Below, piece after piece: positions 1-12,625 of a stretch of 64,000 nt of DNA. Source of the DNA: an uncultured Bacilli bacterium (GTDB taxonomy: Bacteria; Bacillota_I; Bacilli_A; RF39; UBA660); contig CALVRH010000001.1 in the NCBI GenBank assembly GCA_944358535.1, positions 23,708 through 87,707 on the forward strand, written 5' to 3'. Under the pieces are notes generated by a model. That model did not search any database, was not told the DNA's origin, and worked only from the letters and a program-made list of their open reading frames with translations. The position numbers and the translations under genes were made by a program. Numbering within the stretch: position 1 is the first letter of the stretch; each line of letters starts with the position of its first letter.

Positions 1-670
1 TTACTTTATCAAATTTTTCTTCTTGATATTTTTCAGCATTGAAGGCTCTAACTACTCTAATGCCGGTTAGATTTTCTCTAGCTATTCCATTGATTTTATC
101 AATTAATTTTTGAACGAGTTTAAATCTTGGAATAACGATAAGCATAAGGGTTGTAATGACACCCAATAAGATTAATACAGCTATACCAGTGATTGCACTC
201 CACTGCCAACCTTTGTTTAATATTTTGGTAATAGCCCATACCGCTGTTATAGGTGCTTTGACTAGTAGTTGCAATCCCATAGCGATTAACATTTCTATTT
301 GGGTAACATCATTAGTTGTTCTAGTTATTAAACTACTTGTTTGAAATTCTTTGATTTCTTCAGTATCAAGGTTTTGAACTTTATTAAAAATTTGTTTTCT
401 TGTGTTTTTAGAAAATTCTGATGCAATATAAGCGGCAAAATATCCAGCACTAGCGGCGAATATTAAACTGCCTAAAGCGCATAAAACCATATATACGCCA
501 TTTTGAACTATGTCAGACATTTTACTACCTTCTGTTTGAACAAGTACAGTTATTTCAGACATATAATCTGGAATTTTTAGTTCTAGCCATACTTGGCAAA
601 CAATTAAAATTACACAAAATAGTGCATAAAGCCATTCTTTTTTTGTAAGATTTTTTATTAATTTTAGCAT
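1..670 (-). CDS. ABC type-I exporter, N-terminal transmembrane domain (partial; gene continues past window start)
   Basis: Minus-strand frame from ATG at 670-668 stays open to position 1 (absent from ORF track because partial). Translation MLKLIKNLTKKEWLYALFCVILIVCQ... has multiple TM helices and the ...GIRVVRAFNAEKYQEEKF... segment typical of ABC exporter TMDs. Immediately downstream of a MarR regulator. Confidence 0.55.
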   Translation of the reverse strand, partial: MLKLIKNLTKKEWLYALFCVILIVCQVWLELKIPDYMSEITVLVQTEGSKMSDIVQNGVYMVLCALGSLIFAASAGYFAAYIASEFSKNTRKQIFNKVQNLDTEEIKEFQTSSLITRTTNDVTQIEMLIAMGLQLLVKAPITAVWAITKILNKGWQWSAITGIAVLILLGVITTLMLIVIPRFKLVQKLIDKINGIARENLTGIRVVRAFNAEKYQEEKFDKV

Positions 671-674
671 ATGT

Positions 675-1112
675 TCATCCTTTCGTTTTTATATTTTCTT
701 TCATTTTATTAATAATTTTGAAAAAAAGTTCTAAATCTTCTTTTTTGATGCCACTAGTAATAACTTTTTCGGCTTCGTTTAATTTGTCTTTTACAATTTG
801 AAAGTTATTTTTAGCGGTTTCACTAATGATTATTTCTTTTTTTCTAGTATCAATTTGATCTTTAATTCTAAAAATTAGGTCGTTTTTTTCCATTGTTTTT
901 AGAATCTCAGAGAGGGTTGCTCTTCTTAGATTTAGAGCGTTTCCTATGTCTTTTTGATATATTTTTTCATTTTGTTTGGAAATTATAAAGTGCAGGATTT
1001 GCATTTGAGCTGGTGTTGGCATTTTTTGTTTGTCAATATCAGCTATACAAATGTATCTTATAATTTCATGGTTTAAATCTTTTATTAGATAGGTTACTCT
1101 TTTGTTTTCCAT
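675..1112 (-). CDS. MarR-family transcriptional regulator
   Basis: 145 aa with winged-helix core (...QMQILHFIISKQNEKIYQKDIGNALNLRRATLSEILKTMEKNDLIFR...). Positioned directly upstream of the ABC exporter. Confidence 0.8.
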   Translation of the reverse strand: MENKRVTYLIKDLNHEIIRYICIADIDKQKMPTPAQMQILHFIISKQNEKIYQKDIGNALNLRRATLSEILKTMEKNDLIFRIKDQIDTRKKEIIISETAKNNFQIVKDKLNEAEKVITSGIKKEDLELFFKIINKMKENIKTKG

Positions 1113-1236
1113 TATTCACCTTCTTTATAACCTGCTAAAACATTTTAGTATAATTTTAAAATATTGTCAATACCCTAACAAAAATATTTTTAAATCACAT
1201 ATTTTCCCACAATTAAAAGATAAGTGGAACTTATCT

Positions 1237-2094
1237 TTAGTTATTTATATGATGATGTATTTGTGGTGTATTTTTTGTTATTTTGGCAAAAGTATACCCA
1301 TTTTCTTTAGCAAATTTTATAATGGCTGGCAAGGCTTCGACAGTAGTTCTTTTGTCGATTAAATCATGCATTAAGACGATATTTGTTCCATTATGTATTT
1401 TATGCACGACGTTATTATATATGCTTTCTTTTGTCTGCTGACCACTTGCATCATTACTGTCGACATTCCAGTCGAAATAATAGTAATCATTTTCGGTTAA
1501 TTTATTTGTTATTCTAGTTACAATACCTAAATTATATTTTCTAGATATGGTATTTGATGAACCACCTGGTAATCTTACAATACGTGATTTATGGCCAGTT
1601 ATATTATAAATTTGATTTCTTATTTGATTTAAATCATTAAAGTAATTTTCATCTTGGGAATAGATATAACTATAGTTGTGAGTTGATGTATGAAGAGCTA
1701 CTGTATGATTTTCTTCTTGCATTCTTTTAACAAGGCGTGAATATTTATCAATTTGTCTTGAGGTTAAGAAAAAAGTGGCAGGGATATTTTCTTCTTTTAG
1801 AATATTTAATATACTTTCGGTTAGAGCGCTTGGGCCATCATCAAAAGTTAGATAAATGGTTTTAGCTGATACGACTGAAGGGTTTATGTCTTTTGCTTTT
1901 ATTTTATTTGGTTTATAGTAGTTTATTTTTTGACTAAAGGCTACTTTTGGATTTATTTGTTTAAAGGTTTGTTTTGGGTTATTTATTTTGGTTATATAGT
2001 TTAAAATTATTAAAATATTGAATAAGATACATATTATGATTATAATAGGTACTTTATTTTTTAAAATGGTCTGTTTAATGTTTTTATGCAGCAT
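1237..2094 (-). CDS. Polysaccharide deacetylase (NodB/PgdA family), membrane anchored
   Basis: N-terminal TM helix, NodB motifs TFDDGP, HTSTH, RLPGGS, LMHD. About 55% identical over the catalytic domain to the 9068..10477 product. Confidence 0.8.
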   Translation of the reverse strand: MLHKNIKQTILKNKVPIIIIICILFNILIILNYITKINNPKQTFKQINPKVAFSQKINYYKPNKIKAKDINPSVVSAKTIYLTFDDGPSALTESILNILKEENIPATFFLTSRQIDKYSRLVKRMQEENHTVALHTSTHNYSYIYSQDENYFNDLNQIRNQIYNITGHKSRIVRLPGGSSNTISRKYNLGIVTRITNKLTENDYYYFDWNVDSNDASGQQTKESIYNNVVHKIHNGTNIVLMHDLIDKRTTVEALPAIIKFAKENGYTFAKITKNTPQIHHHINN

Positions 2095-2146
2095 ACTACC
2101 TCACCTATTAACATTATACCTTAAAATATAAGGAAAACCAAAGAAA

Positions 2147-3397
2147 TTAGTATTTTCCTTTGGTTTTTTTGCATATATTATTTCTTTCTATTATTAAATT
2201 TAGTATTTCGTTTATTTTTTCTTCAGTTGGATTATCCGCCGTTTTATTTAATTTTTCTAATATTGCTTCTTCACTTTCTTTTGTAAATTCAGATGATATA
2301 GGGTCTGAAAATTTGAGGGCTTCAACTAAGTCTTGATTGTTTATTTTTTTAGCTATGTTTAAAGCTTCTTCAATAAAATTTTGGATGTTATTTATTTTTT
2401 TATCATATTCTTTTAATCTATTTTTGACGAAATATAAAGGTAAGAATATGATAAAATATATGATAGTTGTAACTATAGTTATGATTAAAAGATTATTTAT
2501 ATTTAAGTAAGCATATATGTTTATAGCAAATAGATAAATGATGGATAAAATATATAAGAAAGTTATATATACTGTTTTATCTTGATTTTTCTTTTTATTT
2601 AGAATTAATATAATCAACAAGGTTATAATTAGGGCCACTAATTCTATTATAATGGCAAGATAAAAATTATTATTGATATTTTCGTCTATTATTTGATTTA
2701 TAGTTATAACAGACGAAGGAATATATATTTCGCTTGGCATTTTATCTAAATTCATAGAAATAGTGGTTACAGGAAGATTTTCAATGGTTTCTGGGATTAT
2801 AATTTGTTTTTCACTACCTTTATAACCAGTTACTTCTATTTGATTATTTTTGATGTTATAAGTGAAATTATCGTTACTTTTAAGTTCGTTTAGTTCACTA
2901 TCTGATATGTTTTGATAATTAAAATTGTTTTTTTCGGCATAGTTTTGAACATTTTGATTATTATGTGAGGTTAGTTTGATAGAGCTATTATTGATTGATT
3001 TTATATTTTCATCTATTATTTGATTTATGGTTATAACAGATGAAGGAATATATATTTCACTTGGCGCTTTATCTAAACTCATAGAAATAGTGGTTACAGG
3101 AAGATTTTCAATGGTTTCTGGTATTATTATTTGTTTTTCACTACCTTTATAACCAGTTATTTCTATTTGATTATTTTTGATATTATAAGTAAAATTATCG
3201 TTACTTTTAAGTTCGTTTAGTTCACTATCTGATATATTTTGATAATTAAAATTGTTTTTTTCGGCATAGTTTTGAACATTTTGATTATTATGTGAGGTTA
3301 GTTTAATGGAATTGTTATTAAACGGTTTATTTAGATAGGTTAGAGTTAAGAAAATGGTACTTATTAATATTATAATAACTGGAATGATTTTTTTCAT
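2147..3397 (-). CDS. Membrane protein with two near-identical 118-aa tandem repeats (BspA-like LRR fragments), 4 TM helices and a cytoplasmic coiled C-terminus
   Basis: 416-aa ORF. Repeat unit SIKLTSHNNQNVQNYAEKNNFNYQNISDSELNELKSNDNFTYNIKNNQIE[IV]TGYKGSEKQIIIPETIENLPVTTISM.LDK.PSEIYIPSSVITINQIIDENI occurs twice; the IPSSVITI segment resembles BspA-type LRRs. Start is 1 nt downstream of the SPFH gene stop. Confidence 0.5.
   Translation of the reverse strand: MKKIIPVIIILISTIFLTLTYLNKPFNNNSIKLTSHNNQNVQNYAEKNNFNYQNISDSELNELKSNDNFTYNIKNNQIEITGYKGSEKQIIIPETIENLPVTTISMSLDKAPSEIYIPSSVITINQIIDENIKSINNSSIKLTSHNNQNVQNYAEKNNFNYQNISDSELNELKSNDNFTYNIKNNQIEVTGYKGSEKQIIIPETIENLPVTTISMNLDKMPSEIYIPSSVITINQIIDENINNNFYLAIIIELVALIITLLIILILNKKKNQDKTVYITFLYILSIIYLFAINIYAYLNINNLLIITIVTTIIYFIIFLPLYFVKNRLKEYDKKINNIQNFIEEALNIAKKINNQDLVEALKFSDPISSEFTKESEEAILEKLNKTADNPTEEKINEILNLIIERNNICKKTKGKY
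2609..3316 (-). repeat. Two tandem ~354-bp near-identical direct repeats inside CDS 2147..3397
   Basis: DNA blocks ~2609-2962 and ~2963-3316 are almost identical (e.g. 'gataattaaaattgtttttttcggcatagttttgaacattttgattattatgtgaggttagttt' occurs twice), giving the two 118-aa protein repeats. Confidence 0.8.
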
Positions 3398-3398
3398 A

Positions 3399-4544
3399 TT
3401 ATTTTATTCTCCTTCCACATTTTGGACAAAATATGTTATCGGGTTCTAATTTATGATGGCAGTTTGGGCAGGTTAAATTATTTTCTAATGAGGTTCCACA
3501 TTTTTTGCAAAAGCTGTGATCTTTAGAGTTTGCAGTTCCACACTTTGGACATGTTTTAGTATTGTCAATATTAGCGATAACACCTTGAACATTATTTCCA
3601 ACTTTGTCGCCTAAAGTGGTACCTATTCCGCTCATGATACCAAGTCCTACTCCAACGTTAGCAAATTCGCCTACGCCTTCGTTAGCAGCCATTTTTTCTA
3701 AGGCATTATAAGATCTTTCTTCTTGATATGAGTAACCTTCTTGTTCACGTTTTTTAGCTTCGGCTTCAGAAGCAATGACTTTTTGTTTGGCTTTGGTTTC
3801 TTCATCAATAAGTTTTACTTTTTGTCTTAATTCGGCTTCAGCTACAGAAACGGTTTGTTTAAAATATAATTCTTTAAATTCTAAGTATTGTTTATCATCC
3901 TCTGGTTTTAATATGGTAGTTACAAAGAATTTATTTAGTTTAATGCCATAGTCTGCAAAGTCTTTATTTAAAAGTTTTTGAAGGGTATCACTAAAGTCGT
4001 TTAAGTATTTATCAACTTCAAAGATACATATTTTATTTTCGGTTATGATGTTTGCCATATAACTTTTAACTTTTGTTAATATGCATGATGTGAAGAAGTT
4101 ATCAATTGTTTCATTATCGATTGTTTTTTTGATTCCGACTAGTTTTATTAATAATTTTCTTGCGTCTTCGACAATGAAACGCATTTCACCGCAAGCTCCA
4201 ATTTGAATTGGGAAATTATATTTCGGGTCTAGAAATTCAATTTTACTACTGGTTCCCCATTTACTATTTTTTTCGGTTTTATCGATAAAATATACTTCAC
4301 ACTGAAAGGGACTTCTAAAACCGGTTGGAATATTTAAAAATGTTTTTAGAAGTGGAATATTATTGGTGGTTAAGGTATATTTACCTGGTCCAAATAAATC
4401 TAAAGCTTTACCATTTGAGAAAAATAAGGCTTCTTGTGACTCATGGACTATTAACTGCGACATTGTGTTAAAATTTGTTTTAGGATATCTCCATACTAGA
4501 TTATCGTCGGCTTTTACTTTTTTTATTACTTCAAATATTGCCAT
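3399..4544 (-). CDS. SPFH/band-7 domain protein with C-terminal double zinc ribbon
   Basis: 381 aa. N-terminal ~270 aa match the SPFH fold family often annotated 'virion core protein-like' in Firmicutes, followed by a coiled segment. C-terminus has CPKCG...CKKCG and CPNCH...CPKCG zinc-ribbon pairs. Start is 9 nt downstream of the TIR gene stop. Confidence 0.65.
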   Translation of the reverse strand: MAIFEVIKKVKADDNLVWRYPKTNFNTMSQLIVHESQEALFFSNGKALDLFGPGKYTLTTNNIPLLKTFLNIPTGFRSPFQCEVYFIDKTEKNSKWGTSSKIEFLDPKYNFPIQIGACGEMRFIVEDARKLLIKLVGIKKTIDNETIDNFFTSCILTKVKSYMANIITENKICIFEVDKYLNDFSDTLQKLLNKDFADYGIKLNKFFVTTILKPEDDKQYLEFKELYFKQTVSVAEAELRQKVKLIDEETKAKQKVIASEAEAKKREQEGYSYQEERSYNALEKMAANEGVGEFANVGVGLGIMSGIGTTLGDKVGNNVQGVIANIDNTKTCPKCGTANSKDHSFCKKCGTSLENNLTCPNCHHKLEPDNIFCPKCGRRIK

Positions 4545-4553
4545 AATTTACCT

Positions 4554-6401
4554 CTACTTTCTTTTTGGAATATATTTTGAATATGCATATTCTCCATTTT
4601 GTGATTTATATCCAGAGTATACATAACCTGTTTTGTTTGGTATATATTCTATTTTATACCAAAGACCATCTTTATTTGGACAGTTATCTATATTTTTACA
4701 TGACACTATTTCTAGTACATTATAATAATTTCCTGAAAAGATATAATCTTGTTTTTGGCTACTGCTATCTGGATTTTTTCTAACATTTATATAATCGATT
4801 GTTACTAATATTTGGTTTTCATTTGTGTTTTTTGCGCCTATATTTTTTGGTTTCATGAATACGATGAATATTAAGGTGATTGATAATACTATAGCAAGTA
4901 TATAGGCAATTATTGGCGTTTTAGTATGTGGGTTATCTTCAAAATTTTTCTTTGTTTCTTTTTGTAATTGTTTAATTTCTTCAGCGTACTGTTTTTTGAT
5001 AAGGGTTGTTTCGGCTTTTAATTGCCATTTAGAGTTCATTAATATTAGTATGATAGTGAATATGTAAATACCTAGTATAGATGAGTTAAAAGTTAAGTTA
5101 TATTCTTTATATATAAAGACTGAAAATAGTAAGAATATAAATAGATTTATAATATATAGATATTTAGATATTCTTCGGCTTTTTCGGCTACTAAAACCTA
5201 GTATATAAGCTATAAAATATATTATAGATGTCGTGCCAAAGATTATCACGAGTTGGTCAGATAATAGTTTTATATATAAAGTTGGATTGTTTGAAACAAA
5301 AACAGAATTACTAATTAATATAATATAGAAAGTGGCTACTACAGCGGAGAGTAAAAATGTGATGATGCTATAACTTTTTGGGCATTTTTCTTTGTATATT
5401 TTAACTTCTACGCCTCTTTCTTCTTCCTCTCTTTTTAATTCTTCCTGTTTTAACATTTCTTTGAATTTATTGAATAATTCATCAGATATTTCTTCGTTTT
5501 TTGGTGTTTTTTTGATTATTTTAGTAATACCTCTTATTAAATCTTGAATAGCACCTATTTTATTTAGGTCTTGTCCTTGAAGAAGAATAAATTCTTCAGG
5601 TAAGTCAGAGGCTGTCATGCCATAAAAACAAGGAATTAAGGTTTTATTTTTGTCTTTTTTCATGATGTCTAAGTAACGACTCCACTCATTTTTGACCCAA
5701 ACTGAGTTCATGTTTTTTTGAGATGTTCCAATTACCAACATTACTTTTGAGGATTTTAGTGCTGAATAGATATATGGTTCATATTCTGAGCCTATTTTAT
5801 CTTCTAGAGTAATTCTAGAGAAGAATACTTTATAGTTTAATTTAGTTAATTCGTTATATATTTCTTGGGCTATTACGGAATCTTTGGTTCGTCCACCATT
5901 TTTTTCGTCGGTTTCTTTATAACATATGAATATATCATATGGGCTTTCTTTTTCAGATATTTCTAATATTCCTTTTTGAATTCTATTAATTTCTTTAGCT
6001 TCTTTTTCATAGAGTTCTAATGTTTTACCATAAGCATTTTTTACGATATGTTTATACTCTTGAGTAGTTAAAATTGATTCTTTATTAGTTCTATGACAAG
6101 TAGGAATTTTTTTATTTGTTTTAGGGTCATCGACATATTCGACGCCGTATTTACAAAGAAGAATACCCCACTGCGCTTCTAACTGAGTGTTATCAAGATT
6201 TAATATAGATTCATATAGTCCTTGCGCTTTATCAAACTCATTAGATTGTCTTAATTCGTTTGCTCTATTATAAAGGTTGATTATTTTTTCATTATCAGAG
6301 TTTGGCAAGGTCATAGTACTTTTACAGTATAGACATTTACCGGTATTAGTACCTTTAATTGGCTCAATATCGCCGCCACACATTTTACATTTAAAGGTCA
6401 T
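4554..6401 (-). CDS. TIR-domain membrane protein (Zn-ribbon - TPR-like - TIR - 5 TM - SH3b)
   Basis: 615 aa. N-term CKMCGG...CLYCKS zinc ribbon. TIR core YDIFICYKETD...KVFFSRITLEDKIGSEYEPYIYSALKSSKVMLVIGTSQKNMNSVWVKNEWSRYL (DIFISY-like beta-A strand, SxWxxxE catalytic-type glutamate). Five hydrophobic helices. C-terminal SH3b-like ...INVRKNPDSSS...WYKIEY...GYVYSGY. Confidence 0.75.
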   Translation of the reverse strand: MTFKCKMCGGDIEPIKGTNTGKCLYCKSTMTLPNSDNEKIINLYNRANELRQSNEFDKAQGLYESILNLDNTQLEAQWGILLCKYGVEYVDDPKTNKKIPTCHRTNKESILTTQEYKHIVKNAYGKTLELYEKEAKEINRIQKGILEISEKESPYDIFICYKETDEKNGGRTKDSVIAQEIYNELTKLNYKVFFSRITLEDKIGSEYEPYIYSALKSSKVMLVIGTSQKNMNSVWVKNEWSRYLDIMKKDKNKTLIPCFYGMTASDLPEEFILLQGQDLNKIGAIQDLIRGITKIIKKTPKNEEISDELFNKFKEMLKQEELKREEEERGVEVKIYKEKCPKSYSIITFLLSAVVATFYIILISNSVFVSNNPTLYIKLLSDQLVIIFGTTSIIYFIAYILGFSSRKSRRISKYLYIINLFIFLLFSVFIYKEYNLTFNSSILGIYIFTIILILMNSKWQLKAETTLIKKQYAEEIKQLQKETKKNFEDNPHTKTPIIAYILAIVLSITLIFIVFMKPKNIGAKNTNENQILVTIDYINVRKNPDSSSQKQDYIFSGNYYNVLEIVSCKNIDNCPNKDGLWYKIEYIPNKTGYVYSGYKSQNGEYAYSKYIPKRK

Positions 6402-6505
6402 TTAAAACACACTCCCACTACTTTTTCTATTATGATTTTATCATATTTGTTTTTTTAAAACAATGATTTATAAAAGTACGGTCAAAATACAAATATTGTT
6501 ATAAT

Positions 6506-8350
6506 TTATTTTTTTTCTAATTTTTTAACATATTCATTGTTATCTCCACTATATACATACCCTATTACTCCTTTGCCAGTTTTAATTTTATACCAATAAG
6601 TACTATAATCGTCATATTCGTCTTCTTCGATGGCTTCTAATATTGTATATATTTCACCTTTTTTTACTTCGCCTAAAATATGAGTATTATTATATGTATT
6701 AGTTTCTTGTCTAATTCTAAGGTATTCTGTAATTATTTCTATTTGCTCTTTAGTATCATCGCGTTTATTTGTTTGTTCATTATTTAATGATGTGGCTGTT
6801 TTTATGATAAATAACAAGATGGTTATTATAACAATTATGAGTATTATTTTTTTTCCTTTAGTTTTTTCTTTTGTTTTAAAATTTTCCTTAATATATTTAT
6901 TTTTCTTTAACTGGTTATCTTTTTCTTCGGTAGTCATTATCGATTTAGTACTAGAGTTTAATGTCCAAGATGGATTTAATAATGAAGATATAACTTGAAC
7001 TATAATTATAAAACTATTTATAAGTATTAATTCAAAATTGCCTATCACAATGTTTTCGACGGCTCTAAAATTTTTGTCAGCGAAGTTATCAACGACAGCA
7101 CAAAAAACGTTATTAAACTGTAATATTAATAAAGCTATAGAGAGCGCTGTGAGCAAACTTTTATATTTATATGTTTTTCTTTTGAAGCAAAATATAAATG
7201 ATAAAATAAAGAATATTAAAGATAAGATTATTAATATATAGCTGGATAGTTCAGTATAGTTAATGTCTAACAGTAATAGATAACAAATGCTAGCTATAAA
7301 AATTATTCCTACTTGAATTAAATAGTACCATATTGGAAGATTTTCTTTTAATATAGTAACTTCATATTTACCATTTCCTAAGTTTTTGGCTTCGTCTAAA
7401 ACATTTTGAACTTTAGCAATGGTTTCTTTATCTATGCCTTCAATGTCGTCTACTTTAGTTTCTTCAATTATTTTTTTAACGCCTCTTGTTAAATCTTGCA
7501 TGGCGCCAACTTTATCCATTGATTGAGCTTGAAGCATGGCAAATTCTTCCGGAAGTTTATAGGCGTCTATTTTACTATATACGGGTATTAAAACTTTTGA
7601 TTTGTCCTGATGCATCATTTCTAAAAATCTATTCCACTCGTTTTTGACCCATACAGCACTAAAGTTTTCTTCGCTGGTTCCAACTACGAGCATTACTTTT
7701 GATGTTTTTAAAGCTGAGTAGATATATGGTTCATATTCTTTTCCAAGTTTATTTTCTAAGGTTATTTTAGAGAAAAACACTTTAAATCCAAGATTTGTTA
7801 GTTTATCATAGATATCTTCGGCAATGACAGAGTCATGGGTACGATTTCCTTGTTTATCGGTTTCTTTATAACAAATGAAAACATCATAAGGCTTTTCTTT
7901 TGAAGAAATTGATAGAATATTTTTTTGAATTTCATCGATTTGTTTAGCTTCTTTTTCGTAAAGTTTTAGAGCATCACCATACGAATTTTTTTTGATATAT
8001 TTAAAATCATTATCTAGTAAGATTGAGTAGTCATTTGTTCTATGACATGTTGGTATTTTTTTATTTGTTTTTGGGTCGTCGACGTATTCGACGCCGTATT
8101 TACAAAGAAGGATACCCCAGTGAGCTTCTGTTTGAGTGTTATCTATTTTTAATATGGTTTCATATATTTCTCTTGATTTATCAAATTCATTATTTAATCT
8201 TAAGTCATTGGCTCTATTATATAGGTTTAATATTCTTTCATTATCGATATTAGGCAAGGTCATTATACTTTTACAGTATAGACATTTACCGGTATTAGTG
8301 CCTTTAATTGGCTCGATATCGCCACCACACATTTTACATTTAAAGGTCAT
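6506..8350 (-). CDS. TIR-domain membrane protein, paralog of 4554..6401
   Basis: 614 aa with the same architecture. First ~100 aa ~75% identical (MTFKCKMCGGDIEPIKGTNTGKCLYCKS...). TIR core YDVFICYKETDKQGNRTHDSVIAEDIY...SAVWVKNEWNRFL. C-terminal SH3b ...WYKIKTGKGVIGYVYSGD. Its 5' leader is near-identical to that of the other copy. Confidence 0.75.
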   Translation of the reverse strand: MTFKCKMCGGDIEPIKGTNTGKCLYCKSIMTLPNIDNERILNLYNRANDLRLNNEFDKSREIYETILKIDNTQTEAHWGILLCKYGVEYVDDPKTNKKIPTCHRTNDYSILLDNDFKYIKKNSYGDALKLYEKEAKQIDEIQKNILSISSKEKPYDVFICYKETDKQGNRTHDSVIAEDIYDKLTNLGFKVFFSKITLENKLGKEYEPYIYSALKTSKVMLVVGTSEENFSAVWVKNEWNRFLEMMHQDKSKVLIPVYSKIDAYKLPEEFAMLQAQSMDKVGAMQDLTRGVKKIIEETKVDDIEGIDKETIAKVQNVLDEAKNLGNGKYEVTILKENLPIWYYLIQVGIIFIASICYLLLLDINYTELSSYILIILSLIFFILSFIFCFKRKTYKYKSLLTALSIALLILQFNNVFCAVVDNFADKNFRAVENIVIGNFELILINSFIIIVQVISSLLNPSWTLNSSTKSIMTTEEKDNQLKKNKYIKENFKTKEKTKGKKIILIIVIITILLFIIKTATSLNNEQTNKRDDTKEQIEIITEYLRIRQETNTYNNTHILGEVKKGEIYTILEAIEEDEYDDYSTYWYKIKTGKGVIGYVYSGDNNEYVKKLEKK

Positions 8351-8438
8351 TTAAAACTCACTCCCACTATTTTCTATTATGATTTTATCATATTTGATTT
8401 TGAAAAGCAAATGAAAAATTGGCGTTGTTTTGACCAAT

Positions 8439-9053
8439 TTATTTATTTTCTAGATATTCATTTTGCTCTTTTAAAATTTGTTTTGCTTTATTGTTATCTA
8501 TTACTTTATAGATTTCATATCTAATTTGCTGAAGGGTTTTATATTGACTTTTTTCTTTTTTTGTTGGTTTTTCTATTGTTTTAAATTTTTCTAGATTTTC
8601 TTCAGTGTTAGTTAGTATTATATTTAATTCATTATTATTAAATGTTTTATTAGAAATATAATCTTGGTATAAAGTAGTTACAATGTCTAGGCTTTCTAAT
8701 TTATAAAAATAGTTATTAAATTCATCTTGGTATTTATCATATGCTTTATTTTTTAATAAGGCATTAAAATACCATACGGTGTAAATGGAATATTCTTTTT
8801 CGGCGTCTTTACTATCTTTTCTTTCCTTTATGAAATTATCTTTTTCTTTCAACAATTGACTATAGTATTTTATTTGTTTACTATAGTTTTTTGTTCCATA
8901 GAGATTACGACATAGTGTGATTAGATCATTATAGTCTTTGGTTTTGTTATATTTTTGTTCTAGATGTTTTGGGAGGTTTTGATCCCAACAATAAGAAAAT
9001 GTGAGTGTAATAGCTATAACTATTAATAAACTTACAATGATTTTTTTGATCAT
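8439..9053 (-). CDS. Hypothetical membrane-anchored protein
   Basis: 204 aa, single N-terminal TM helix (IIVSLLIVIAITLTF) then a K/Y/N-rich soluble domain. No recognisable motifs. Confidence 0.35.
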   Translation of the reverse strand: MIKKIIVSLLIVIAITLTFSYCWDQNLPKHLEQKYNKTKDYNDLITLCRNLYGTKNYSKQIKYYSQLLKEKDNFIKERKDSKDAEKEYSIYTVWYFNALLKNKAYDKYQDEFNNYFYKLESLDIVTTLYQDYISNKTFNNNELNIILTNTEENLEKFKTIEKPTKKEKSQYKTLQQIRYEIYKVIDNNKAKQILKEQNEYLENK

Positions 9054-9067
9054 GATATCATCTCCTA

Positions 9068-10477
9068 TTAATTATTTACTCCATGGGTGACCATTGGGGT
9101 ACTCATGGTTATTTTATCAAAACTATAACCATTATTTTTACCAAATTGAATAATACTTTTTAGGGCATCTCTAGTTTGGGGTTTTATATCGTGCATTAAA
9201 ATGACATTGGCTCTATTTTTGCTTAGGTTTTTAACAACATTATTGTATACGGTTTTAGAGCTTCTAGCGCTTCCTGCGTCGTCACTATCAACATTCCAGT
9301 CAAAGTAATGATAGCCTTTATTTACAACGTCTTTTGTAAGAGTAGTCATGATACCTTTTGAGTATTTTTTTGAAATGGTATTGGATGAACCTCCTGGAAA
9401 TCTAATTATTTTTGATTCATATCCAGTTATTCTTTTAACTCTATTTTGGACTTGTAATAGGTCATTATAATAATTATTTACTGAACTATAAACTGTTGAA
9501 TAGTTATGAGTTGCAGTGTGAAGTCCAACGGTATGTCCTTCATTATATTCTCTTTTTATTAGAGAATCTGGACCACTATTAGTGACAAAGAATGTGGCTT
9601 TGACATTTTCTTCTTTTAAAATATCTAAAATAACGTTTGTCGTGCCTTCTTTTGGGCCATCGTCGAAGGTTAGATAAATGATACCTTTATTAACCGTGGA
9701 ATTATTTTTTACAGGTTTATTTATTACTTTTACAGTTCTATCTATACTAAAGGTATTACTGGTAGAATCTTTAACTGTATAATTTATTTTGTATGTGCCT
9801 ACTTTATTGGTATTTACGCTTCCGGATGTTATGACTTTACTAGTTAAATCATTATCACAATTATCAGCTGCAGTATAACCTGGTTCTTTCCAAGATTCAC
9901 CAATATATATGGTTTGAGACTGATTTCCTTTTAAGGTTATTGTTGGACTGGTTTTATCTTCTTTAGTGATGGTTCTAGTTAGTTCAGTTTTATTACCTGA
10001 CGAATCTTCTACTTTATATGTTATGATATTGTTTTTAGTAATAACTTGAACTTTGCTTGTGATGTCACCATCATAATTATCTATTGCTTTATAACCTTCT
10101 TCTTTATATTCTTTATTTGGACATATGGTTATATTTTGATTTCCTGTTAAAGTTATTTTTGGCTTTTCTTTATCTATTAGTTTAACTTTTCTTATTTGTT
10201 TAAATGTTAATCCGTTTATTTTTACTTGATATATTATGTCATATGTACCTAGTTTGTTTTTATTGATTTTATTAGTTATTTTTACATTTTTTGAATAATC
10301 ATGGCCAAATTTTGTTACTTTATAACCTGGTTCTTTATATTTTTGACCATATTTTAAGGTTATGTTTTGTCCTTTAGTTAATTCAAATTTTGGCGGCCAA
10401 AAAAATAAAACTACTAGGCTAATTAATAATAAAATAATTATAATTATAATTATACTAATAACGTACTTCTTTTTCAT
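9068..10477 (-). CDS. Polysaccharide deacetylase (PgdA-like) with three N-terminal Ig-like (DUF5011-type) domains
   Basis: 469 aa. TM anchor, three repeats of the ...G.Q.ITI..GE.WKEPGY.A.DN.D.D.TSKV... type, then NodB domain (LTFDDGP, HTATHNY, RFPGGS, LMHD). Confidence 0.8.
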   Translation of the reverse strand: MKKKYVISIIIIIIILLLISLVVLFFWPPKFELTKGQNITLKYGQKYKEPGYKVTKFGHDYSKNVKITNKINKNKLGTYDIIYQVKINGLTFKQIRKVKLIDKEKPKITLTGNQNITICPNKEYKEEGYKAIDNYDGDITSKVQVITKNNIITYKVEDSSGNKTELTRTITKEDKTSPTITLKGNQSQTIYIGESWKEPGYTAADNCDNDLTSKVITSGSVNTNKVGTYKINYTVKDSTSNTFSIDRTVKVINKPVKNNSTVNKGIIYLTFDDGPKEGTTNVILDILKEENVKATFFVTNSGPDSLIKREYNEGHTVGLHTATHNYSTVYSSVNNYYNDLLQVQNRVKRITGYESKIIRFPGGSSNTISKKYSKGIMTTLTKDVVNKGYHYFDWNVDSDDAGSARSSKTVYNNVVKNLSKNRANVILMHDIKPQTRDALKSIIQFGKNNGYSFDKITMSTPMVTHGVNN

Positions 10478-10485
10478 ATTTTCTC

Positions 10486-11118
10486 CTATTTATTTTGATA
10501 TTCTAGGGCTTCTTTTAGTGAGTATTTACAACCACAATATTTTTGACGATAAAGGTTATATTTGGCGGCGAGTTCGTTACTTCTTTTATATCCTTCTTTC
10601 TTTTTGAAGTCGGAGTACAAGTATTTGATACCATATTTTTCAGATAAAACCTCACCTATTTTGTTTAATTTTTCACTATTTTTATAAGGACTTACTGATA
10701 AAGTGGTAGTAAAGTAATCAAAGTTATGTTTTTTGGCTAGTTTAGCGGTTTTTTCTAATCTTAGATAAAAACATTTGGTACATCTTTCGCCACCTTCTTT
10801 TTCGTTTTCCAAGCCTTTAGCGATAGATTTGAATTCTTTACTTTCGTAACCTATTTCTAATATTTTTATTTTGAATTTCATTTTTAGGATTATTTCTTTT
10901 AGGGTATCAAATCTTTTTAAGTATTCTTCTTCTGGATATATGTTTGGATTATAGTACAAAATGGTGACATCAAAAAAAGGATAAAGCCTTTCTATAACTG
11001 AACTACTGCATACTCCGCAGCAAGCGTGAAGTAATAGTTTGGGTTTACCTTTTAAATTTGTTATAGTTTCTTCCATTATTTGATTATAATTTGTTTTCAT
11101 AATTTCACCTTTATTCAA
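10486..11118 (-). CDS. queH: Epoxyqueuosine reductase QueH (DUF208 family)
   Basis: 210 aa. LLLHACCGVCSS Fe-S motif near N-terminus and C-terminal ...YRQKYCGCKYS, characteristic of QueH. Confidence 0.7.
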   Translation of the reverse strand: MNKGEIMKTNYNQIMEETITNLKGKPKLLLHACCGVCSSSVIERLYPFFDVTILYYNPNIYPEEEYLKRFDTLKEIILKMKFKIKILEIGYESKEFKSIAKGLENEKEGGERCTKCFYLRLEKTAKLAKKHNFDYFTTTLSVSPYKNSEKLNKIGEVLSEKYGIKYLYSDFKKKEGYKRSNELAAKYNLYRQKYCGCKYSLKEALEYQNK

Positions 11119-11137
11119 GGATATTATAACACAAATA

Positions 11138-12625
11138 TTACATAATTAAAACATCGCCAGTCATTTCTTTAGGAATTGTTAATCTAAGAACTGTTAATAC
11201 AGTTGGTGCGATATCTGATAATTTGCCATTTTTAAGTTTGATGTTTTCTTTAGTGATTAAAAAAGGTACGGGATTTATAGAATGGGAAGTAATGATATTC
11301 CCTTCATTATCTTGCATATAATCGCAATTTCCGTGATCGGCGGTAACGATTAATGTGCCATTTAGTTTTTTTATTTCTTTATAAATTTTACCAACACATT
11401 TATCTACTGCTTCAAGAGCTTGTACAGTGGCTTCGAAGTTACCGGTATGTCCGACCATATCACCGTTAGCAAAGTTTAAGATTATGACATTATAGTCTTT
11501 TAGTTTTGGAATTAAGGTTTTAGTTATTTCATATGCGCTCATTTCTGGTTTTAAGTCATATGTGGCGACTTTTGGTGAAGGTACTAGTATTTGGTCACAA
11601 TGACTTAGATTATCTTTATTTTCACCATCAAAGAAGTATGTAACATGGGCATATTTTTCCGTTTCTGCAATTCTTAATTGAGATAATTGGCTTTTTTCTA
11701 AAACTTCTCCTAAATAGTTGGTTATTTTAGGATGAGTGAATAGGTTTGTACATATTACATTTTTATCAACGGGAAGCATAGTAATGAGTTTTAAATTTGG
11801 GATGAATTCTCTTTTAAATTCTTTAAAGTTTTCATTTGTTAAGGCTGTAAATAGTTCTCTTAAGCGGTCAGGTCTAAAGTTAAAGACAATAATACCATCA
11901 TTTTCTTTGATAATGCCATTAGTATGAGTGAATGGAACAATAAATTCATCGGTAATTTTATGTTTATAACTATCTTTTATTTTCTTTTTTATGTCATATG
12001 TTTTGGTTATTTCGGTCATTTCTTTATAGGCTTTTTTAATGCGATTCCATCTATTGTCTCTATCCATGGAATAATATCGGCCTGAAACTGTAGCTATTTC
12101 GCCAGTGTTTGTACTTTTAATTTTATCTTCTAATATTTCTATAAATTTTAAAGCTTCTTCTGGCTTAGTGTCTCTACCGTCGGTAAAGATATGATAGTAA
12201 ATATGATTGATGTTTTCATTTTTTAAAATATCGATTAAACCTAGTAAGTGATTAATATGGGAGTGAATACCACCATCACTTAATAGTCCACATACATGTA
12301 AATCTGAGTTATATTTTTTCAGATGTTTGATGAGACTTTTATATTCTTTGTTTTTAGGTATTTCTCCATTTTCAATAGCTTCGGTGACTATGTCTAGGGA
12401 TTGTTTTGGTATTCTACCTGTTCCAATGTTTATATGTCCTACTTCGCTATTACCCATTTGGCCTTCTGGTAAGCCAACTGATGGGCCACTTGCTTCTAGA
12501 GTGGTATGAGGATATTTACTAAATAACATGTCTAAATTTGGTGTACTAGCGGCGCTTAAGGCATTTCCGTGAGTGTTTGGTCTAATCCCGACTCCGTCTA
12601 AAATACATAATAATAATGGTTTCAT
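11138..12625 (-). CDS. gpmI: 2,3-bisphosphoglycerate-independent phosphoglycerate mutase
   Basis: 495 aa. N-terminal LLCILDGVGIRP...GNSEVGHINIG and C-terminal ...TADHGNCD... metal-binding motifs of iPGM. Confidence 0.9.
   Translation of the reverse strand: MKPLLLCILDGVGIRPNTHGNALSAASTPNLDMLFSKYPHTTLEASGPSVGLPEGQMGNSEVGHINIGTGRIPKQSLDIVTEAIENGEIPKNKEYKSLIKHLKKYNSDLHVCGLLSDGGIHSHINHLLGLIDILKNENINHIYYHIFTDGRDTKPEEALKFIEILEDKIKSTNTGEIATVSGRYYSMDRDNRWNRIKKAYKEMTEITKTYDIKKKIKDSYKHKITDEFIVPFTHTNGIIKENDGIIVFNFRPDRLRELFTALTNENFKEFKREFIPNLKLITMLPVDKNVICTNLFTHPKITNYLGEVLEKSQLSQLRIAETEKYAHVTYFFDGENKDNLSHCDQILVPSPKVATYDLKPEMSAYEITKTLIPKLKDYNVIILNFANGDMVGHTGNFEATVQALEAVDKCVGKIYKEIKKLNGTLIVTADHGNCDYMQDNEGNIITSHSINPVPFLITKENIKLKNGKLSDIAPTVLTVLRLTIPKEMTGDVLIM

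Follow-up and report, generated by a model that had tools for sequence, protein, structure and literature searches.

A TIR, SPFH and membrane protein gene trio from an uncultured Bacilli bacterium as a putative copy of a conserved Firmicutes membrane module

Does a TIR gene that is packed tightly against the genes of an SPFH-family protein and of a repeat-bearing membrane protein merely reflect the economy of a small AT-rich genome, or do the three genes form a unit, and, if so, what might such a unit be doing at the membrane? The question is raised by a 64,000-nucleotide (nt) stretch of DNA from an uncultured Bacilli bacterium of the UBA660 lineage (contig CALVRH010000001.1, positions 23,708 to 87,707; hereafter “the window”, to the numbering of which all coordinates refer), where a sequence-only reading had pointed to the three genes, proposed that they constitute an operon, and regarded the trio as undescribed. 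Comparison with related genomes strongly supports the operon, and we put at roughly even odds (about 0.5) the reading that the region is one copy of a conserved Firmicutes membrane module, in which a platform made up of the SPFH protein and a membrane protein of a family designated C2 would restrain envelope-watching transmembrane (TM) TIR sensors. The parts of such a module would be one or several TIR receptors with a variable ectodomain, a soluble SPFH protein of the YdjI/SamI type, and a C2 protein with four TM helices.

The gene trio and its conservation

All of the module genes are located on the minus strand. The open reading frame (ORF) of a protein with a TIR domain predicted to be cytoplasmic (TIR-A, 4554..6401, 615 amino acids (aa)) is followed, after 9 nt (4545-4553), by the SPFH gene (3399..4544, 381 aa), from which the third gene, encoding the C2-family membrane protein (2147..3397, 416 aa), is separated by a single nt (3398); both the positions and the spacings are exactly those that the sequence-only reading had given. 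A Shine-Dalgarno-like GAGG/GGAGA is found at, or just past, the 3′ end of each upstream gene, and the terminator scan returned no terminator-like hairpin between TIR-A, the SPFH gene, and the third gene. The earlier picture of one TIR gene did not hold, as a second paralogue, TIR-B, is encoded upstream on the same strand (6506..8350, 614 aa).

The conservation of this arrangement was followed outward from the TIR protein, the N-terminal ~300 aa of which (the “head”) served as the query in a scan of one genome per species. At least 573 loci encode such a head at 51-61% identity, and their hosts include Lachnospiraceae, Oscillospiraceae, Ruminococcus, Blautia, Christensenellales, Erysipelotrichaceae, and others, with Blautia, Ruminococcus, Pseudoflavonifractor, and Eubacterium isolates, such as Blautia sp. 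HCP3S3_H10_2, Ruminococcus sp. FC2018, Pseudoflavonifractor capillosus An827, and Eubacterium sp. MSJ-21, among the culturable carriers. ORFs were called and clustered in 79 of these loci (Clostridia and Bacilli), for which the locus counts are lower bounds, given the simple ORF calling on partly fragmented contigs of metagenome-assembled genomes (MAGs). Only three families recur in the 79 loci, namely the zinc-ribbon-TIR (ZnR-TIR) proteins (112 proteins in 72 loci), the SPFH-zinc-ribbon proteins (49 loci), and the C2 proteins (43 loci), and the surrounding genes vary. Of the 78 pairs of TIR and SPFH genes, 77 have both members on the same strand; SPFH and C2 genes are adjacent in all 40 of their same-strand pairs, always within 50 nt of each other; and the median gaps amount to 18 nt (TIR-SPFH), 2 nt (SPFH-C2), and 16 nt (C2-TIR). 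Where at least 5 kb of sequence is available on both sides (n = 20), an SPFH gene was found in 16 loci, and both an SPFH and a C2 gene in 14 of them. Loci that had been seeded with the C2 profile instead had, in seven cases out of seven, an upstream Band_7_1 gene together with one or more ZnR-TIR genes no farther than 10 kb away, all on the same strand.

Chance falls far short of explaining the trio arrangement, given that dozens of species have the same set of genes amid surroundings that are unrelated. That the TIR-A, SPFH, and C2 genes form an operon, which the sequence-only reading had proposed from their spacing, is strongly supported by this gene-neighbourhood conservation: the same-strand, tightly packed trio is a feature of the 79-locus set, and the pairing of the genes is retained even in relatives at 49% identity, where the TIR-SPFH-membrane protein trio is found at another site, between rpoC and ffh. 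The SPFH and C2 genes, moreover, are apparently translationally coupled. The module was also encountered in two MAGs bearing non-Firmicutes labels (L087, a planctomycete, and L091, Tannerella; comparison loci are denoted by L and a number), which could stem from mis-binning or horizontal transfer.

Component proteins of the candidate module

The TIR-A protein is a predicted membrane protein, in which Pfam recognizes TIR_2 (7.6e-11, aa 157-271) and SH3_3 (4.7e-07, aa 538-598), and its AlphaFold2 model has a mean predicted local distance difference test (pLDDT) score of 79, with values of 84-94 across aa 1-300. The protein begins with a C4 zinc ribbon (aa 1-31, 6309..6401), whose cysteines C5, C8, C23, and C26 are conserved in alignments (among 63 diverse representatives, two never vary and the other two are conserved to at least 90%, and all four are invariant in closer relatives). 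The TIR domain proper (aa 155-297, 5511..5939) was found by Foldseek to match plant TIRs, SPARTA TIR-APAZ, AbTir (7uxu, template-modelling score of 0.76, target-normalised), SARM1, and MyD88, and carries a W-x-x-x-E motif (W235-V-K-N-E239), the glutamate of which we take to be the catalytic residue of NAD-cleaving TIRs. E239 and W240 are at least 98% conserved across 75 family members and invariant among the 63 representatives, and the glutamate is invariant in A1, A2, and A4 as well; conservation of the head extends to a WG..LC.YG.EYV.DP...K..PTCHR stretch and to the core of the TIR domain. Next come five predicted TM helices (aa 342-515, 4857..5378; by hydropathy and AlphaFold2, in the latter at 342-364, 382-401, 406-434, 440-454, and 497-515), and the protein ends with an SH3b domain (aa 530-611, 4569..4814), for which Foldseek retrieved the SH3b-containing peptidase structures 3npf and 4r0k. 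The predicted topology is N-in/C-out, which would place the zinc ribbon, a helical region, and the TIR domain on the cytoplasmic side of the membrane and the SH3b domain on the extracellular side.

TIR-B repeats this zinc-ribbon-TPR-TIR-5TM-SH3b architecture (TIR_2 5.4e-11; SH3_3 7e-06) and is 70.6% identical to TIR-A across aa 1-300, i.e., the cytoplasmic head, vs. 29.4% across the remainder. Each of the two genes is preceded by a promoter-like element, reading TTGTTT, 17 nt, and TAAAAT with a TG extension upstream of TIR-A (6423..6463, minus strand) and TTGCTT, a 17-nt spacer containing TG, and TAAAAT upstream of TIR-B (8370..8410, minus strand), and the two form a 41-nt direct repeat that is 90% identical; with a near-identical element before each TIR gene, the whole gene and its promoter would therefore have been duplicated in tandem. 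The TIR copy number in close relatives ranges from one to three (three in one genome at 95% identity, one in others). One close relative has a hybrid TIR gene, and this variation as a whole (L006, L014, L022, and L023) suggests that the conserved 5′ halves of TIR genes frequently undergo unequal recombination.

What is attached to this head differs elsewhere. A HMMER search with the head alone against 1.84 billion cluster representatives returned 3,878 clusters (50% identity) at E<=1e-30, and in the top 150 of these the head is always N-terminal in proteins of 432-2,363 aa, so the diversity lies downstream of the head. Among the 63 representatives, the C-terminal domains include DUF6273 (13), RCC1 propellers (5), BspA LRR_5 (4), and SH3b (4), often preceded by TPR or coiled-coil linkers. 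Approximately two-thirds of the representatives have at least one TM segment past the TIR domain, the last of which is followed by a median of 225 residues, and the receptor ectodomain, as predicted from sequence, would be an SH3b domain of the peptidoglycan-binding type in the window and a BspA leucine-rich repeat (LRR), a DUF6273 lectin fold, or an RCC1 propeller in other members. According to published reports, DUF6273, the commonest of the family ectodomains, is a domain that diversity-generating retroelements target when it occurs in phage receptor-binding proteins.

The SPFH protein comprises a Band_7_1 domain (1.4e-40, aa 17-221), a coiled coil, a Gly/Met-rich low-complexity stretch, and two C-terminal C4 zinc ribbons (aa 331-379, 3408..3554; CPKC...CKKC and CPNC...CPKC; DZR 4.2e-11 and Zn_Ribbon_1 8.1e-14, covering aa 332-378), and hydropathy analysis revealed no TM or other hydrophobic segment in it. 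These features extend to the family, where a TM segment is missing from all 49 proteins, two or more zinc ribbons are present in 44 of them, and 21 also bear ribbons at the N-terminus. YdjI/SamI of Bacillus subtilis is likewise soluble and combines Band_7_1 with a stretch of low complexity and a zinc finger at the C-terminus (PMC8581546; PMC11237479), and the window protein, which shares this architecture in all its parts (Band_7_1, no TM segment, low-complexity stretch, and C-terminal ribbons), aligns with YdjI at 22% identity over 361 columns (blastp, aa 13-366 vs. 19-322, E 6.7e-18; phmmer 9.4e-19), i.e., as a distant, full-length homologue. The longer clostridial SPFH proteins (~600 aa; L032, L044, L051, and others) have N-terminal ribbons resembling the double ribbon of YdjG (E 4e-8), which suggests that, across Firmicutes, domains have been shuffled between the SPFH protein and the membrane partner.

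The third protein (AlphaFold2 pLDDT of 79) is laid out, by hydropathy and AlphaFold2, as an N-terminal TM helix, two ~105-aa beta-rich outer repeats, three TM helices, and a helical cytoplasmic tail. The repeats arose from a recent tandem duplication (2673..3299, minus strand), of which the 300-nt copies at 2673-2972 and 3000-3299 are 95% identical at a spacing of 327 nt, and their number is polymorphic: both one-repeat (307 aa) and two-repeat (416 aa) alleles occur among relatives, those at 88-91% identity having the one-repeat protein. Repeat variants are found among the proteins P0162-P0175, and in another lineage the protein (P0180, 507 aa) has three such units. A 311-aa version of the gene in L001, whose scaffold is identical to the window, was rejected as a variant, since a run of 100 N (11254-11353) lies inside the repeat, an assembly artefact of the tandem repeat itself. 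As for the “BspA-like” nature that had been ascribed to the repeats, the support is weak and mixed: Pfam LRR_5 is absent from the protein at E<=0.01, but distant sequence matches to LRR_5 (PF13306) proteins do exist (E 5.6e-12 to 1e-7), and the best fold match of the repeats is TpLRR of T. pallidum (Foldseek, E 1.9e-3, probability 0.97).

The protein clusters with ~230-aa four-helix C2 proteins, with which its last 180 residues align and both signature motifs are shared, i.e., FSDPIS (nt 2294-2311) and ERNNICK (nt 2168-2188), both within the conserved core of three TM helices and a helical cytoplasmic tail that alignments delimit (aa 239-416, 2150..2683). The [YF]SDP motif is found 47-60 residues from the C-terminus in 39 of the 43 C2 proteins. 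Compared with the C2 family, the N-terminal TM helix and the surface repeats are additions of the window lineage only, so a third member that had been taken for a surface-repeat protein is better described as a C2-family membrane protein, of which the four-TM core and the cytoplasmic tail are conserved and the repeats are lineage-specific. Pfam has no family for the C2 proteins, none of the sources consulted gives them an informative name, the third-gene model returned nothing from Foldseek for its TM core and tail, and sequence searches of the PDB with all three proteins yielded no matches. In sum, the earlier domain calls (TIR with SH3b, SPFH with two zinc ribbons, and a membrane protein with duplicated repeats) agree with Pfam, hydropathy, and the DNA repeat, and the C4 ribbons that were said to start the TIR protein and to end the SPFH protein are real.

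Local signals and neighbouring genes

The GC content across the region is 21-34%, and in such AT-rich DNA, promoter and terminator scans are uninformative, their hits being at or below the shuffle expectation (66 promoter-like elements vs. 72 expected); the hexamers that the promoter scan flagged at the TIR-B element (8370..8410) are among such hits. Read with this in mind, the element at 6423..6463 would be the likely start of the TIR-A/SPFH/C2 transcript, and the sole terminator-like hairpin on the module strand (2134..2167), found by the terminator scan and visible in the sequence, has a weak AT-rich stem followed by a T-rich tract and overlaps the stop codon of the third gene. No known RNA element was found by Rfam in positions 1-12000 of the window.

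The surroundings of the cluster consist of ordinary genes (phosphoglycerate mutase, QueH, competence-pilus genes, two polysaccharide deacetylases, and, farther off, rpoBC). The closest genome records are MAGs of uncultured Bacilli recovered from gut and faecal metagenomes, and the complete or near-complete chromosomes of relatives measure 1.39-1.52 Mb. The deacetylases are PF01522 paralogues that lie on both sides of the cluster (1237..2094 and 9068..10477), the upstream one having three bacterial Ig-like surface domains in addition, and they are placed outside of the module because the trio is located elsewhere (rpoC-ffh) in the relatives at 49% identity. A further ORF upstream of the TIR genes (8439..9053, 204 aa, with an N-terminal TM helix), for which Pfam, NCBIfam, and PADLOC all gave no match, was considered as a part of the module and rejected, as it is kept only in the closest relatives (counterparts in L023 and L024, and genes of 204-210 aa also in L001 and L006) and has no counterpart in the lineage at 49% identity.

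In other lineages, the module is often immediately preceded by a small ribbon-helix-helix (RHH)-like gene of ~60-120 aa (L032, L056, L059, L068, L069, L077, L082, L084, and L092, as well as L096 at 3649-3840 and L098 at 6465-6656), with a weak match to RHH_1 in two loci; it may be a dedicated transcriptional regulator of the module, and the window lineage is devoid of it. TIR paralogues sometimes have “defence-flavoured” neighbours, i.e., AbiH/SIR2_2-like genes (L046, L059, and L073; the Pfam scores of these AbiH/SIR2-like genes are under the gathering cut-offs) and DUF2971 genes (L044, L052, L066, and L078, in the last of which the DUF2971 gene occupies the place of C2), or recombinase neighbours, be it resolvases (L032, L037, L051, L081, and L100) or large serine recombinases (L019, L035, L048, L049, and L096). 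Two loci have a beta-propeller gene lacking a TIR domain between SPFH and C2 (L098, 8478-9986, RCC1-like; L101, 7544-9988, LRP1-like), and the TIR paralogues beside these genes carry RCC1 propellers.

Possible function and relation to known systems

The closest point of reference is the pspA-ydjGHI (samGHI) operon of B. subtilis, with which the module shares a homologous SPFH component and the encoding of that component together with membrane proteins, among them one with a cytoplasmic zinc ribbon at its start. A YdjG-type partner comprises two zinc ribbons, a YpeB/NTF2-like domain, and a TM segment, and YdjH is a TPM-domain membrane protein. No partner of the former kind is present in the module, the N-terminal ribbon of the TIR protein being all that aligns, weakly, with YdjG at its first ribbon (hhalign probability of 44% over 41 columns; blastp E>=0.004), although the N-terminal ribbons of clostridial module SPFH proteins do resemble those of YdjG, as noted above. 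YdjH bears no similarity to C2 or to any protein of the 79 loci (best E ~1), and PspA/IM30 has no counterpart in the window cluster or in the 79 loci (best E ~1). With YdjG, YdjH, and PspA lacking counterparts, the possibility of a plain SamGHI/Psp system was rejected. The partners that the module does have, TIR and C2, are both absent from the Bacillus operon, and the gene order differs; as far as sequence comparison goes, the module has a single homologous component and a principle of design in common with SamGHI and is not a member of it. SPFH-NfeD operons (QmcA-YbbJ and HflK/C-type scaffolds) similarly have an SPFH gene followed by the gene of a small multi-pass membrane protein, but the module SPFH protein lacks a membrane anchor, there is no NfeD match in Pfam, and the trio does not contain an SPFH-NfeD pair, as the tail of C2 is all-helical in the AlphaFold2 model, whereas an OB fold defines NfeD.

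What the SPFH protein might do with its partners can be approached through YdjI, the membrane localisation of which requires the membrane proteins YdjG and YdjH (PMC8581546; PMC11237479), and through SamI, which acts as a brake on SamGH signalling (bioRxiv 10.64898/2026.02.06.704340). On the reading that we favour, the genes would be co-transcribed from the promoter-like element upstream of TIR-A, and C2, possibly along with the receptors, would bring the soluble SPFH protein to the membrane, by analogy with YdjI and its two partners. An SPFH oligomer may then corral and restrain the TIR heads, as SamI does SamGH, until a change outside (cell-wall damage, a ligand, or phage contact) or a perturbation of the membrane releases or clusters them, with the SH3b domain of the window receptors probably reading the state of the cell wall. 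The heads would thereupon self-associate and cleave NAD+, producing a signal or growth arrest, the cleavage being proposed because the presumably catalytic glutamate is retained.

Several observations weigh against this reading. In 4 of the 20 loci with full flanks, the SPFH gene is not nearby; 50 of the 149 TIR representatives are devoid of a TM segment detectable by a crude hydropathy test; and there is no obvious downstream effector in the module that could read a TIR-made signal. The head is, furthermore, unusually conserved (55-60% identity across classes), which is atypical of conflict systems and could reflect a non-enzymatic structural role, and the analogy with SamGHI rests on a single shared component at 22% identity, because YdjG, YdjH, and PspA are absent. 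The purpose that such sensors would serve may be envelope-stress signalling or phage defence.

The same data have, accordingly, to be held against rival explanations, the plainest of which is that there is no functional unit at all, and that independent genes are tightly spaced as a result of packing in a small AT-rich genome. Short intergenic distances are, indeed, common across the window, and promoter and terminator scans, carrying no information here, do not speak for a unit, yet the recurrence of the same three families on one strand in dozens of species of several families and classes, with the other neighbours changing, contradicts this explanation to the point where we give it hardly any credence. 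An uncatalogued anti-phage (abortive infection) system, in which the ectodomains would detect phage receptor-binding proteins or adsorption damage, NAD+ depletion by the TIR domain would kill the cell, and SPFH/C2 would prevent autoimmunity, is a more serious contender, albeit one that we consider rather unlikely. The conserved catalytic TIR motif, the hypervariable sensor domains, a paralogue number varying from one to three between close strains, the differing genomic contexts of the cassette, and the occasional AbiH/SIR2_2-like, DUF2971, and recombinase neighbours would all suit such a system, as would a weak match to the PADLOC candidate PDC-S66 (1.9e-6). That single-gene candidate, however, is the only TIR match in PADLOC-DB 2.0; neither PADLOC nor NCBIfam returned anything above threshold for the module proteins, the clostridial versions included, and SPFH and C2 had no PADLOC match whatsoever. 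The defence-like neighbours are rare (3-4 of the 79 loci) and score under their family cut-offs, the head evolves slowly (as its identity across classes indicates) and is broadly distributed in Firmicutes, and the module of the window lineage resides among core genes of a genome of ~1.4-1.5 Mb. No relatives were found by tblastn in 50,697 phage records and 72,556 plasmids, nor in IMG/VR contigs, where the lineage-specific peptide patterns used make for a less sensitive search.

With the TIR-containing defence systems that are already known (Thoeris, TIR-STING, SPARTA TIR-APAZ, and the TIR effectors of Pycsar/CBASS), the module shares the TIR fold and the conserved catalytic glutamate, and activation by self-association is plausible for the module TIR too, but the module has no ThsA-type effector, cyclase, Argonaute, or SAVED/STING sensor, and its TIR protein is membrane-tethered and has an extracellular domain. 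For Thoeris in particular, NCBIfam ThcB4 scored 19.6-22.7 bits vs. a cut-off of 220, no PADLOC Thoeris match was obtained, and no SIR2/SLOG/Macro gene is present in the window cluster. The remaining rival dispenses with NAD+ chemistry altogether and sees in the trio a surface-protein organising platform, where a non-catalytic TIR acts as a self-association or adaptor domain gathering ectodomains in SPFH membrane patches. Ectodomains such as SH3b, BspA LRR, and lectin folds are typical of Gram-positive surface and adhesion proteins, SPFH proteins are established in the literature as scaffolds of membrane complexes, and both the strong conservation of the head, which fits a protein-protein interface, and the chromosomal site among core genes would agree with it. 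A purely structural role would not obviously need the catalytic Glu and the preceding Trp, which are near-invariant in more than 100 diverse members, and since the fold is closest to enzymatic as well as adaptor TIRs, structure alone is indecisive; we regard this explanation, too, as improbable.

The favoured reading of SPFH/C2-restrained sensors also invites a comparison with animal Toll-like receptors (TLRs), which likewise combine an ectodomain (an LRR in some of the module receptors, e.g., L062_10), a TM segment, and a cytoplasmic TIR domain and have an SPFH-family partner, as flotillins modulate animal TLR signalling according to the literature. The orientation is, however, opposite, with the TIR domain N-terminal and the ectodomain C-terminal in the module, which has an additional zinc-ribbon/TPR head, SH3b instead of LRR in the window copies, and no known adaptors or downstream pathway; the likeness is, at best, one of analogy, the homology being limited to the TIR fold. 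A bolder extension, which we put forward only tentatively and hold to be doubtful, would have gut Firmicutes possess a Toll-like receptor repertoire of thousands of swappable ectodomains on one ZnR-TIR head, with NAD+ cleavage gated by an SPFH cage and a four-TM anchor, i.e., a hitherto unrecognised form of outside-in innate sensing that would be the prokaryotic counterpart of flotillin-regulated TLR signalling.

Full-text literature searches (TIR with SPFH, Band-7, or flotillin; Band_7_1/PF13421), in which subscription journals were partially covered, returned no description of the module, and this, like the PADLOC and NCBIfam negatives, agrees with the earlier remark that the trio is undescribed; the remark does not extend to its SPFH protein, which belongs to the known YdjI/SamI family. 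What would be new is the association of a TIR client with an SPFH-scaffolded membrane sensor complex, and not the SPFH family itself.

To our knowledge, nearly all of the characterised bacterial TIR proteins are either cytoplasmic phage-defence enzymes or secreted virulence factors, and we know of outside-in TIR signalling so far only from animal Toll-like receptors. A widespread, chromosomally stable family of membrane-spanning TIR proteins with swappable ectodomains, encoded together with an SPFH scaffold and a membrane partner of its own, would be a sign that bacteria use this mode of signalling, too. If the favoured reading is true, a second and very different client would be added to the YdjI/SamI class of SPFH proteins, which is itself poorly understood, and the idea of SPFH proteins as brakes on membrane sensors could be tested on it anew. 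Abundant gut Clostridia and small-genome Bacilli commonly carry the module, and its function, therefore, would have a bearing on major members of the microbiome, be it in envelope biology, phage interactions, or surface recognition.

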